The notes under the pieces: generated by a model
Seen by the model: the letters and a program-made list of their open reading frames with translations, nothing else
Databases searched by the model: none
What the model was told of the DNA's origin: nothing
Position numbers and translations under genes: made by a program
Source of the DNA: Escherichia coli
GTDB taxonomy: Bacteria > Pseudomonadota > Gammaproteobacteria > Enterobacterales > Enterobacteriaceae
Assembly: GCF_003334765.1 (NCBI RefSeq)
Contig: NZ_QOWT01000011.1
Length of the DNA stretch: 64,000 nucleotides
Reading direction: 5' to 3' (one strand)
Shown: positions 11,240-31,617 of the stretch, one piece after another
Layout of the letters: every line of letters begins with the position of its first letter
Numbering within the stretch: position 1 is the first letter of the stretch

Positions 11240-12124
11240 TTACTTTGTAATGAGATCGGGGTCAACTTCGCTTAACCGGCTTCGTTTTGACAGGTTGCCG
11301 GTCTTTCTTTTTTTCACTTTCGCCAGTTCTTCCGCAGAGTAATGCGACGCGACATCCAGCCGTCGAAGCCCCATTTTGATGTACTCGCTGTTGATCTCAA
11401 TACCAATGAATTTTCGTCCGCTGGCGATGGCTACGGCACCGGTAGTAAAGCTACCAGCAAACGGGTCGAGAACGATATCGCCTGGGTTGGAAGAGGCGAG
11501 AATAATGCGTTTCAGTAAGGCTTCCGGTTTTTGCGTCGGGTGGTTTTCATATTCATCCATCAAATAACGCACGCGCGGAAAATCCCAAACGTTACCCGGT
11601 ACTTTTTGATGATTGTAAGGCTGTGGAGGATTTTTGCGATAATCGATCAACGCGCGCTGCGATCCGGTTTTGGCTTCTACCAGAATAGCATCACCGTTGA
11701 ATGTGTAGTTCTTTGCGTCTTTCACCATCATCAGGATGGGTTCGTACATGGAGCCGTAGTGTTTTTTCGCCTGCACTCCAGAACTGTCATATGACCAGAC
11801 GATGCGACTTTTGATGGTAAAAAGCTTGCGGCACTGGAGATCGATAAAGGGCATGTTTTCCGTACTGTTCATGATGTACATGCTGCCCTGCTTTTTCAGA
11901 ACGCGGTGGCACTCTGCAATCACTTCAAACAGCCAGTCGATAAACAGATCTTCTTTCCAGGCTTCGATCAGACCATCAAAATTTTTACCGATGTTATATG
12001 GTGGGTCGGCAAAGATCAGATCGACACTTTCGGCGGGGATCTTTTTAAGTTCGGCAAGCGCATCACCGTGAATAATGGTCTTAGCTTCATTACCAAACCG
12101 GGTCGGTTCACATCCTGTTCTCAT
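11240..12124 (-). CDS. yhdJ: DNA adenine (N6) methyltransferase, orphan
   Basis: ORF with DPPY motif (FADPPYNIG) and SAM-binding region; 294 aa from MRTGCEP. Confidence 0.9.
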   Translation of the reverse strand: MRTGCEPTRFGNEAKTIIHGDALAELKKIPAESVDLIFADPPYNIGKNFDGLIEAWKEDLFIDWLFEVIAECHRVLKKQGSMYIMNSTENMPFIDLQCRKLFTIKSRIVWSYDSSGVQAKKHYGSMYEPILMMVKDAKNYTFNGDAILVEAKTGSQRALIDYRKNPPQPYNHQKVPGNVWDFPRVRYLMDEYENHPTQKPEALLKRIILASSNPGDIVLDPFAGSFTTGAVAIASGRKFIGIEINSEYIKMGLRRLDVASHYSAEELAKVKKRKTGNLSKRSRLSEVDPDLITK

Positions 12125-12209
12125 GGTCACTCCCTTTGTGACACCTATAAAAAAGGCGCTTCCCCATGCCGAGTAGCGCCTTTTTAATCAAGCATTTAGC
12201 TAACCTGAA

Positions 12210-12506
12210 TTAGTTCATGCCGTATTTTTTCAATTTTTTACGCAGCGTACCACGGTTGATGCCCATCATCAGCGCAGCACGGGTCTGGTTACCACGGGTG
12301 TATTGCATCACCATGTCCAACAGGGGCTGTTCTACTTCAGCCAGTACCAGCTCATAGAGGTCATTCACATCCTGACCATTCAGTTGAGCAAAATAGTTCT
12401 TCAGTGCCTGTTTAACCGAGTCACGCAGGGGTTTTTGGGTTACCTGATCCTGAGAGTTAACGGTAGAAACGGTCAGTACGTCAGAATTTACGCGTTGTTC
12501 GAACAT
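12210..12506 (-). CDS. fis: Nucleoid-associated DNA-binding protein Fis
   Basis: 98 aa [42 protein letters not shown]...[13 protein letters not shown] matches Fis. Confidence 0.97.
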
Positions 12507-12531
12507 AGTTCTGTCAGCTCTTTATTTCTGT

Positions 12532-13497
12532 TTACGCAAAATTTTCGAAGTATGCCTCCAACGCCTCCAGCTGTTCGCTGGCATCCTCAATGGCGTTGAA
12601 TGTGCGCCGAAACTGGTCATTTGGAGCGTGTTCCTGGAGATACCAGGAAACGTGTTTACGTGCAATTCGGTACCCTTTTGCCGGACCATAAAAGTCATGC
12701 AGTTCCCGAACGTGCGCGCAAAGCAAGCGCTTAACCTCTGCCAAAGGCAGCGGGGGCAGCAACTCCCCAGTGTCCAGATAATGCTGGATTTCCCGAAAGA
12801 TCCAGGGTCTTCCCTGAGCTGCGCGGCCTATCATCAGGGCATCCGCCCCTGTATAGTCGAGCACAGCTCTGGCTTTAAGCGGGTCAGTAATGTCGCCATT
12901 CGCGATAACCGGAATGGAAACTTTCTGCTTAACTGCCCGAATACTGTCGTACTCAGCTTCTCCATTGAACAAACAGGCGCGTGTACGGCCATGAATGGTC
13001 AGAGCCTGAATGCCACAGTCTTCAGCCAGTTGGGCAATCTCTTCGCAGTTACGGTGTTCCGGTGCCCAGCCGGTGCGAATCTTCAGGGTAACAGGAACGT
13101 CCACTGCATTGACGACCTCGGTAAGGATCGATTTAACGACATCCGGGTACTGCAAGAGGGCTGAACCTGCGAGCTTGCGATTCACTTTTTTAGCCGGGCA
13201 ACCCATATTGATATCAATAATCTGGGCACCGCTTTCCACGTTAATACGTGCTGCATCTGCCATTTCTTTCGGATCGCTACCAGCAATTTGCACGGTGCGA
13301 ATACCGGGTTCATCAATGTGCACCATCCGTAAACGAGATTTGTCGCTTTCCCAAACCTGTGGGTTAGAAGACATCATCTCGGATACTGTCAATCCGGCTC
13401 CCATCTCGTAGCACAACGTCCGAAAAGGTCTGTCTGTAATGCCAGCCATGGGCGCTGCGATCAGGCGATTTCTGAGCTGATATTGTCCGATGCGCAT
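12532..13497 (-). CDS. dusB: tRNA-dihydrouridine synthase B
   Basis: 321 aa ORF immediately upstream of fis in the same operon; FMN-binding TIM-barrel motifs. Confidence 0.93.
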
Positions 13498-13825
13498 GAG
13501 TTAAGAAATGACCATACTGTGACTGCAAGGCGGCGTATATTACGCATTTTTTGCACGAGATGAAAGGCCAAACTTTGACCAATCCTCTGAGATGGATCAA
13601 AGAATTGCATTTAAAATGAGCGTGGTGCGATAATTACTCATAAAAATCATCATATTAGAAAATAGTGACTAAAATTTACACTCAAAGAAATTTGAGTAAG
13701 TTCTCAATTTTTCTTTATGAATGAAAATTTTGGCACGCAAATTTGCGTAAATAATCGGCAAATTTACGTGCCTTTTGTGAGCTTGCTCGCACTTCGCCCC
13801 GCGTCACCCTACGGCGATGCGAAGG

Positions 13826-14707
13826 TTAATTCTTACGACCGGTAATACGGCACCACTCTTCTTTTTCCACGACCGGGTCCAGTGCGAAGCTATCGGCATA
13901 AGCTTCACAAACGCTCTCTGCCTGGCTTGCCAGAATACCGGAAAGGCCCAGCAAACCGCCTGAAACCGGCAGGACGCTGATTAACGGTGCCAGTTCACGT
14001 AATGGGCCTGCAAGGATGTTAGCGACCACCACGTCGGCTTTCATTTCTTCTGGCTGATCTTTCGGTAAGTAGAGTTCCAGACGGTCAGAAACGCCATTAC
14101 GTTCGGCGTTATCGCGGCTGGCCTGAATCGCCTGCGGATCGATATCAATACCAATGGCTTTTGCTGCACCCAGTTTCAGCGCCGCGATCGCCAGAATGCC
14201 GGAACCACAGCCAAAGTCGATGACTGTTTTACCGGTTAAATCGAGGCTGTCGAGCCATTGCAGGCACAGAGAGGTGGTTGGATGGGTACCCGTACCAAAC
14301 GCCAGCCCTGGATCTAACATCACGTTGACGGCGTTTTCGTCCGGCACATCACGCCAGCTAGGGCAGATCCACAGTCGTTCACCAAAGCGCATCGGGTGGA
14401 AATTATCCATCCATTCGCGCTCCCAGTCTTTATCTTCTAGTTGTTCGATTTTATGCGCGAAGCCTGCGCCGAGCAGCGGATGGTTTTCCAGAATCGCCAC
14501 CACGTCGTTCATATCGGTTTCAGCGTCGAACAGACCAATCACATCGGTGTCGCCCCACAGGCGCGTTTCGCCCGGCAGCGGTTCAAATACTGGCGTATCG
14601 TGGGTATCCTGAAAAGTGATAGAAACGGCACCCGCTTCCATCAGCGCATCGCTAAGATCTTCCGCGTTCGCGCCGGTGGTGTTCAGTTTCAGTTGGATCC
14701 AAGGCAT
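13826..14707 (-). CDS. prmA: Ribosomal protein L11 methyltransferase
   Basis: 293 aa ORF with SAM-binding motif [13 protein letters not shown]. Confidence 0.93.
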
Positions 14708-18341: not shown

Positions 18342-19318
18342 GAGTGGGTTCCGTACTCTTTGTTTAGTGTGATTGTGACAGGCGTTTCACCGCCGTCTGT
18401 AAAGCGTATGCCCCGACAGCTGTATGCATAGCGATAAATTCCAGCAGGCCGGGACGCCGGTCTATTTTGCCCCAGAGTGTCAATGTTAGACTTGACGGAC
18501 ATTGTGCAGCGATCTGCTGCTATCCTCCGGCAAAAAACAAAATATACCTTCGTTGCGCCAATGTCACCTTTTCCGCAGCGCAAAAACTGCGTCAGGGAGG
18601 ACGAGGTCGCACATTATAACGATTTCGTAGCAATTGGCAGCTAAATACTGGTCTTATCAGGGAAGATAATCAACAGCTAACATGTAAATAACCTTCAACA
18701 CCGTGTAATTTGCAACAAGCCGCACAATTCACGAAATTAGCGCCATCATCGACGGAACTTCTTATAACGTAAGGTGAAAAGCTGAAAAGCCAGCCCTGCG
18801 AAGATGAGGGGCTGCAATGAGATAATCTTCACAGACCACAAATAATGTAGGGATGCCAGGATCGCGACAAGATAGACGACATTACGCAGCGGTTGCTGGG
18901 GATTACCCAATTTTCACTGCATCGTCTGGATAGATGTGAATGCTAAAGCACGCAAAATTAACCGATTGACAATGCTCAGCATTAAATAGGTTCGAGTGAT
19001 TAATTTGTAGTCAAACAAAATCAGATTATTCACCCCATGGTACCAGAAATAAGTAAGGGGCTAAGCGTAGCGTCGCCCAGGCAAAGCACCATAAACCTAA
19101 CAGGCGACGGAGGCGTATCAATAATAGCTGTTTAGTGGAGTATCAATGCGCATCAATTTGTGGTCAGTCGAAATCATGACTTTCCAGTTTGGATGATGTT
19201 GTATAACTTCCTGACCAAGGTGTTCGACGAAAGCTGTCCGGCTAACCGCTTTTCCCGTTAACCGATTGAATAATGATTTCAAAATGAGTTCCCTCTCTTA
19301 TTATTCCCTGCTAAATGG

Positions 19319-31379: not shown

Positions 31380-31617
31380 GCCAGAACATAACCGTAGGTC
31401 GGATAGGGCGTTCACGCCGCATCCGGCAGCCGTTGCCTGATGCGACGCTGTGCGTCTTATCAGGCCTACAAACGGAACATAACCGTAGGTCGGATAAGGC
31501 GTTTACGCCGCATCCGACAGCCGTTGCCTGATGCGACGCTGTGCGTCTTATCAGGCCTACAAACCGGAACATAACCGTAGGCTGGATAGGGCGTTCACGC
31601 CGCATCCGGCAGCCGTA
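31380..31617. repeat. Cluster of about 2.5 tandem REP/BIME units (period about 91 bp)
   Basis: Repeated ...aacataaccgtaggtcggatagggcgttcacgccgcatccggcagccgttgcctgatgcgacgctgtgcgtcttatcaggcctacaaa... between yhdP and tldD. Confidence 0.9.

Follow-up and report, generated by a model that had tools for sequence, protein, structure and literature searches.

The E. coli gene yhdJ encodes M.EcoKII, which we regard, at a probability of roughly 90%, as the orphaned methyltransferase of a restriction–modification (R-M) cassette, maintained by selection and most likely transcribed through read-through from fis. Its identity, fold class, orphan status, ancestry context, and selection are established here, and its ATGCAT specificity and its silence in K-12 are taken from the literature. 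The question that the gene raises is why a methyltransferase that is silent or has no phenotype should be a core gene under strong purifying selection. Its position behind the fis terminator, together with plasmid relatives that are linked to an endonuclease, makes this question of retention more testable; neither observation will surprise R-M specialists, and yhdJ is annotated in every E. coli genome.

yhdJ Encodes a Beta-Class N6-Adenine DNA Methyltransferase

The coding sequence of yhdJ occupies positions 11240 to 12124 on the minus strand of the window (the whole 64-kb stretch of DNA that was analyzed), with its ATG at 12124 and its stop at 11240–11242, and specifies the 294 aa, plus stop, of the orphan beta-class N6-adenine DNA methyltransferase M.EcoKII. 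An in-frame GTG at 12130, two codons 5′ of this ATG, is the mechanical start of the open reading frame. The 1701 nt from 10900 to 12600 are 100% identical to E. coli K-12 MG1655, where the gene is labeled "yhdJ: adenine-specific DNA-methyltransferase," and the same stretch was found in 5426/5426 complete E. coli genomes searched.

Profile matches, structural matches, and motif order agree on the class of the enzyme. YhdJ matches Pfam N6_N4_Mtase (PF01555; E = 3e-64, aa 34–251, model positions 1–218 of 221), the NCBIfam equivalog NF008572 for adenine-specific DNA-methyltransferase (589.5 bits with a cut-off of 292, positions 1–294 of 294), and the PADLOC profile MTase_II PDLC03299 (517 bits), and among solved structures the beta-class enzymes CcrM (6pbd, 3.6e-33), M.MboIIA, and M.RsrI come closest. 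Translation places the catalytic motif IV, DPPY, at aa 40–43 (codons at 11996–12007, minus strand), where it aligns with the DPPY of CcrM (PDB 6pbd), and SAM motif I, DPFAGSFTTG, at aa 220–229 (codons at 11438–11467, minus strand), where it aligns with LDPFFGVGTTG of CcrM. Motif IV is therefore N-terminal to motif I, which is the circular permutation of the beta class. Judged by its sequence, YhdJ is a beta-class type II N6-adenine DNA methyltransferase, the YhdJ/M.EcoKII equivalog. The initial annotation of the region, which had proposed an N6-adenine methyltransferase yhdJ with a DPPY motif and a SAM-binding region, is borne out by the identity to MG1655, by PF01555 and NF008572, and by both motifs. 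The motif I codons include, at 11438, the AgeI site (ACCGGT) through which yhdJ was inactivated to give the null strain ER3413 (PMC4444293).

The gene, its enzyme class, its ATGCAT target, its orphan status, and the lack of a phenotype are already known, having been published since 2007. As relayed in PMC4444293, Broadbent et al. 2007 (J Bacteriol 189:4325) reported that yhdJ encodes M.EcoKII, that overexpressed YhdJ methylates the second A of ATGCAT and thereby confers protection against NsiI, and that yhdJ can be deleted in E. coli without a phenotype. In strain ER2796, 0/1644 ATGCAT site instances (both strands) gave an m6A signal (PMC4444293). YhdJ is active in S. Typhimurium, where 513 ATGCAT sites are methylated and deletion of yhdJ abolishes the modification at every one (PMC9239280). 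A 2026 preprint on Salmonella found that ~61% of ATGCAT sites are methylated in at least one growth stage, with more methylation during mid-exponential growth than in late stationary phase. The earlier description of both the expression and the target sites of YhdJ as poorly defined thus stands for native expression and role, which are unclear, and is contradicted for the target by the ATGCAT data (PMC4444293, PMC9239280). Because these data on ATGCAT have been published, the methylome experiments proposed with that description have already been done. RNA as an alternative substrate of YhdJ was considered and dropped, the sole literature match being a yhdJ deletion strain that retained 23S m6A2030.

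The Methyltransferase Stands Alone at Its Locus

All genes flanking yhdJ could be identified; they are housekeeping or efflux genes and none is a nuclease. Along the minus strand the order is panF, prmA, dusB, fis, yhdJ, yhdU, with acrEF beyond envR/acrS, so that the locus has the arrangement fis-yhdJ-yhdU-envR of the chromosomal YhdJ position. Upstream lie dusB (12532–13497, minus strand), the first gene of the dusB-fis operon, and fis (12210–12506, minus strand), the immediate same-strand neighbor of yhdJ, both taken from the open reading frames and the MG1655 annotation. The downstream neighbor is yhdU (10977–11156, minus strand; MG1655 annotation), which encodes a 59-aa DUF2556 protein and sits where relatives of YhdJ elsewhere have an endonuclease gene. 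It is convergent with envR/acrS, a TetR-type repressor gene (10312–10974, plus strand; open reading frame and MG1655 annotation), and the stops of envR (10972–10974) and yhdU (10977–10979) are 2 nt apart with no terminator between them.

A search for degraded copies of an endonuclease gave the same result as the annotation. We built a hidden Markov model (HMM) from 39 of the partner endonucleases described below and ran it on six-frame translations, where it recovered intact, split, truncated, and frameshifted copies in control loci. Neither the 64-kb window nor any of 24 enteric loci yielded a remnant of the partner endonuclease with this profile (best E = 3.6). The endonuclease and controller genes of the putative ancestral cassette appear to have left no trace at the yhdJ locus. 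There is no adjacent cognate endonuclease that would make this a complete type II R-M system, and YhdJ is an orphan methyltransferase kept at a fixed locus under selection. The annotation and the HMM search confirm the initial reading of the flanks, with envR and yhdU on one side, fis-dusB on the other, and no endonuclease.

Three further features were recorded elsewhere in the window. Positions 1–351 are the distal part of an rRNA operon, comprising the 3′ part of a 5S rRNA (1–106), a tRNA-Thr GGU (121–196), and a second 5S rRNA (236–351). Two tandem matches to the Rfam family naRNA4, a REP-derived nucleoid-associated RNA, lie at 31397–31557 (71 and 77 bits). An amino-acid ABC transporter substrate-binding gene at 3711–4735 occupies the yhdW position, which the MG1655 annotation gives as a frameshifted pseudogene.

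Relatives outside the Enterics Are Mostly Paired with an Endonuclease

We surveyed relatives of YhdJ with one genome per species, which yielded 80 loci (24 enteric and 56 nonenteric). The 56 nonenteric homologs are 58–72% identical to YhdJ, share no common gene context, and come from Pseudoalteromonas, Marinobacterium, Nostoc, Anabaena, Pseudomonas, Prochlorococcus, many Bacteroidota, and some Clostridia. In 48/56 of these loci, a conserved gene of 340–390 aa lies 0–61 nt beyond the methylase. In Bacteroidota the two genes are co-directional, whereas in proteobacteria and cyanobacteria they converge. Its product matches the PADLOC profile REase_II PDLC03455 over its full length (5e-70) and bears the NCBI name "type II restriction endonuclease"; Pfam, NCBIfam, and PDB gave no match, and the identification comes from PADLOC and generic NCBI names only. 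The core of the family reads YKTGRTNANDGGIDFV(L/M)KPLGRFFQVTE (L030, 4853–5920, and 47 other loci).

Loss of the endonuclease is seen among these relatives too. About eight nonenteric loci are without the endonuclease, and several have a frameshifted, split, or truncated copy. Since intact, damaged, and missing endonucleases all occur, every stage from a complete system to an orphan is visible. Loci with damaged copies are L026, L050, L056, L060, and L068 (about 4750–5980 in each), among them Flavobacterium covae and a Clostridiales metagenome-assembled genome. Taken as a proxy for the specificity of the R-M-linked relatives, depletion of ATGCAT in their loci is only moderate (observed-to-expected ratio 0.49, rank 8 of 64), and loci without the endonuclease show a similar depletion.

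Plasmid Cassettes and the Origin of the Orphan

The same endonuclease family is carried by small plasmids of E. coli, Klebsiella pneumoniae, and Enterobacter asburiae, and 4/11 matching records are typed as mobilizable. Two E. coli plasmids were examined, pEC22 (NC_025058) and p2017.15.02CC_2 (NZ_AP027820), both typed as mobilizable. Each has a controller–restriction–modification (C-R-M) cassette that consists of an HTH controller, the endonuclease, and a convergent methylase annotated "yhdJ." With 76% identity, the methylase of pEC22 resembles YhdJ as closely as the Salmonella ortholog does. In a neighbor-joining tree drawn without support values, the enteric chromosomal yhdJ genes group in a single clade whose topology resembles that of the species, with the plasmid methylases as sister group.

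These relationships suggest that yhdJ derives from a type II R-M cassette of a kind that small plasmids of Enterobacteriaceae and bacteria of other phyla still carry. Before Escherichia, Citrobacter, and Salmonella diverged, the methylase gene would have been fixed a single time immediately after the fis terminator. After capture of the cassette, the endonuclease and controller genes would have been lost, and purifying selection would have kept the methylase. One capture followed by loss of the endonuclease and the controller is the simplest reading.

Conservation and Selection

Directly after fis, yhdJ is present in 24/80 loci, all from Escherichia, Citrobacter, and Salmonella, at 75–98% identity (one copy is cut by a contig end). 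Where the contig is long enough, prmA-dusB precedes fis-yhdJ and yhdU-envR-acrE follows it. In the 80-locus scan this synteny is confined to the three genera, and the Fis protein is 100% identical in 23/24 of the enteric loci. Loci of the Salmonella type (L084, 5165–7264) have a 699-aa MHYT-GGDEF-EAL gene between yhdU and envR that is absent in E. coli.

Within E. coli, yhdJ is nearly universal. The gene was found in 5418/5426 complete genomes (99.9%), with at least 80% of its length in 5388, and 8 genomes are without it. Rare natural disruptions of the locus include NZ_CM169476.1 (H1) and NZ_AP027500.1 (H45). Strain EC25 has an insertion of the IS4-like element ISVsa5 in the yhdU-yhdJ-fis stretch, and in strain LR-25 all but the final 22% of yhdJ is gone, the remainder being misannotated as an RsmD family RNA methyltransferase.

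Between species, the protein is strongly constrained. The dN/dS of yhdJ is 0.052 in comparison with E. whittamii (dS 0.48) and 0.04–0.06 in comparison with Citrobacter and Salmonella, where dS is saturated, and the enteric orthologs compared contain no internal stops. Because between-species dN/dS is about 0.04–0.06, selection maintains YhdJ, and yhdJ is a core gene under purifying selection and not a decaying relic.

The opposite view, that yhdJ is a functionless remnant of a dead R-M system that has not yet decayed, is very improbable. It would account for the silence of the gene in K-12 and for a deletion without phenotype, as relayed in PMC4444293, as well as for the near-zero phenotype in Salmonella, where deletion has essentially no effect on virulence and where most S. 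Paratyphi A strains have yhdJ truncated at codon 151 (PMC9239280); the few E. coli genomes in which the gene is missing or truncated also point this way. However, a dN/dS of 0.04–0.06 across genera, with dS saturated, is unexpected for neutral sequence, all the enteric species loci examined have an intact open reading frame, the gene is present in 99.9% of complete E. coli genomes, and the enzyme is active when expressed, according to the work summarized in PMC4444293. A functionless remnant is already disfavored by the selection data.

Transcription behind the fis Terminator

Between the stop of fis and the start of yhdJ lie 85 nt, most of which form the intrinsic terminator of the dusB-fis operon. 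This terminator (12149–12185, minus strand) was recognized from its fold and has an A5 tract, an 11-bp stem around GGCGC, and a U6 tract, with a predicted fold energy of −19.3 kcal/mol. A consensus scan had overlooked it, its loop being long, and it was found by folding. From the U-tract to the ATG of yhdJ there are just 24 nt, too few to accommodate a promoter for the gene, and they include the Shine–Dalgarno sequence AAGGGAG (12130–12136, minus strand), 5 nt 5′ of the ATG and in the loop of a small predicted hairpin.

The terminator is conserved more strictly than the sequence behind it. Across the K-12 window and 24 aligned loci of Escherichia, Citrobacter, and Salmonella, the hairpin, loop included, is essentially invariant, whereas the spacer from the U-tract to the yhdJ ATG varies from 20 to 28 nt, always with a ribosome-binding site. 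In the same comparison, the 14-nt loop region (ACUCGGCAUGGGGA, 12155–12180) is invariant or nearly so and the flanking intergenic bases vary. The conservation of this loop exceeds what a terminator loop needs.

One genome separates the terminator from yhdJ. In the Enterobacteriaceae genome GCA_043358095.1, Fis is 100% identical and DusB and PrmA are about 96% identical to K-12, and the fis terminator is nearly identical (two loop substitutions), yet yhdJ, yhdU, and envR are absent. Since the terminator is found in a genome without yhdJ too, it belongs to the fis operon and yhdJ has been placed behind it; the spot behind the fis terminator is variable. After the terminator, this genome has three convergent open reading frames of 72 aa, 765 aa, and 314 aa, the last of which runs off the end of the locus (L086, 3800–7297). 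They gave no Pfam or PADLOC match, and NCBIfam gave only a subthreshold hint of an HK97 capsid.

In the window, the consensus scan found no promoter-like minus-strand site from 12125 to 13900, that is, up to the region upstream of dusB. Because the gap is 24 nt and no promoter-like site was found, the anatomy of the region makes it most likely that native transcription of yhdJ relies on read-through past the fis terminator. Such read-through would explain why, unless it is overexpressed, the enzyme escapes detection in K-12. Read-through would also fit both the silence in K-12 and the higher methylation of mid-exponential Salmonella, fis being strongly expressed in exponential phase (PMC4751926). 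Deletion of dusB-fis left yhdJ mRNA without significant change relative to the control strain (PMC4751926), but that control strain itself carried a cat cassette between fis and yhdJ, which makes the test unclean. The fis hairpin is identical in Salmonella and K-12 and the Shine–Dalgarno sequence of E. coli yhdJ is the stronger of the two, and the sequences of terminator and leader give no reason why the enzyme is active in Salmonella and silent in K-12. A literature search on fis-yhdJ read-through and on pEC22/EcoT22I returned nothing usable.

Proposed Coupling to Fis

The adjacency of yhdJ and fis had led the initial annotation to suggest an epigenetic or regulatory coupling between them. 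YhdJ would then be a partner of Fis, with ATGCAT methylation modulating fis or Fis-dependent promoters and adjacency reflecting functional coupling. We consider such a partnership highly unlikely, and the available data have already largely refuted it. The two genes are adjacent and on the same strand in 24/24 loci of Escherichia, Citrobacter, and Salmonella, and YhdJ sites are the most condition-dependent of the Salmonella methylome (PMC9239280; 2026 preprint), both of which speak for a partnership. Yet there is no ATGCAT between 9000 and 14000, a range that takes in yhdJ and the dusB-fis operon with its upstream region, and the nearest site is at 18424; because of this absence, a direct epigenetic coupling to fis is unsupported. 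Nor does the Salmonella transcriptome favor it: without yhdJ, just 12 transcripts change in LB and not one in SPI-2 medium, and the majority of the 12 genes have no ATGCAT site (PMC9239280). Differentially methylated ATGCAT sites in Salmonella are likewise unassociated with expression changes (2026 preprint). Finally, the adjacency is limited to one clade of three genera, and the fis terminator exists without yhdJ. The published transcriptomes disfavor a regulatory role of YhdJ more generally. What the anatomy supports is a one-way dependence, in which transcription of fis would feed that of yhdJ.

Avoidance of ATGCAT in the window was also considered and rejected. The window contains 9 sites where a Markov model expects 10.8, a value in the middle of the range of the 64 palindromic hexamers. 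Another expectation, 28.3, was set aside because it appears to count both strands of the palindrome.

Possible Reasons for Retention

One possible function for an orphan under selection is immunity. YhdJ may be kept as a "molecular vaccine," in that premethylation of ATGCAT would block the establishment of, or postsegregational killing by, plasmids with ATGCAT-specific R-M systems. This is a claim about function that is compatible with the origin of yhdJ as the orphan of an R-M cassette, and we hold it only tentatively. The threat that it presupposes could come from the plasmids described above, since small E. coli, Klebsiella, and Enterobacter plasmids carry the cognate endonuclease family (4/11 records mobilizable) and the two mobilizable E. 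coli plasmids have a full C-R-M cassette with a methylase 74–76% identical to YhdJ. It would also suit a core gene that is under purifying selection and has no regulon, and it has a precedent in the anti-addiction role of Dcm against EcoRII, as cited in PMC11602122. Several observations are harder to accommodate. YhdJ activity is undetectable in K-12 (PMC4444293), and with ~61% of sites methylated in Salmonella, partial methylation would leave the chromosome open to cleavage. The ATGCAT specificity shared with the plasmid system is putative, with a moderate depletion of ATGCAT near relatives (observed-to-expected ratio 0.49), and the 9 sites in the window with 10.8 expected indicate no avoidance there.

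Read-through and immunity can be combined into a single account. In this account yhdJ would be promoterless and transcribed only by read-through from fis, ATGCAT methylation would track the early-exponential burst of fis, and the gene would be kept as immunity to addiction plasmids of the ATGCAT C-R-M type. We regard the combination as doubtful. If true, it would account mechanistically for the silence in K-12 and give a function to a core gene that has none assigned.

Comparison with Known Systems

The gene in the window and M.EcoKII of K-12 (Broadbent et al. 2007) are the same gene, with DNA 100% identical to MG1655 and no differences. The published traits of M.EcoKII, namely methylation of ATGC(m6A)T, orphan status, dispensability, and silence in K-12, are thus those of this gene.

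The closest kin of this enzyme outside the chromosomal clade are the methylases of the plasmid C-R-M cassettes, which share 74–76% aa identity with YhdJ over aa 1–267 and the same motif order. They differ in the basic C-terminal tail of YhdJ (aa 268–294) and in context, as the plasmid methylase gene is convergent with a 343-aa endonuclease gene behind a 69-aa HTH controller, whereas chromosomal yhdJ has neither.

CcrM, the GANTC cell-cycle methyltransferase of Caulobacter, is likewise a beta-class N6-adenine enzyme and an orphan. Its structure 6pbd is the best solved-structure match of YhdJ (aa 10–265), with DPPY and motif I aligned. However, YhdJ scores 135.4 bits against the CcrM equivalog NF050803, below its cut-off of 830, and lacks the ~80-aa C-terminal domain of CcrM, the alignment to 6pbd ending at residue 267 of 366. 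The targets also differ (ATGCAT for YhdJ, GANTC for CcrM), and YhdJ, unlike CcrM, is dispensable and has no known cell-cycle regulation. YhdJ shares chemistry and fold class with CcrM but falls outside the CcrM family.

Dcm, an E. coli orphan related to M.EcoRII, offers a parallel of another kind. Both Dcm and YhdJ are conserved enteric orphans with little regulatory phenotype. Dcm shares its specificity with an R-M system that is carried on plasmids, and an anti-addiction role has been proposed or demonstrated for it; it is a constitutively active C5-cytosine enzyme, whereas YhdJ is an N6-adenine enzyme that is silent in K-12.
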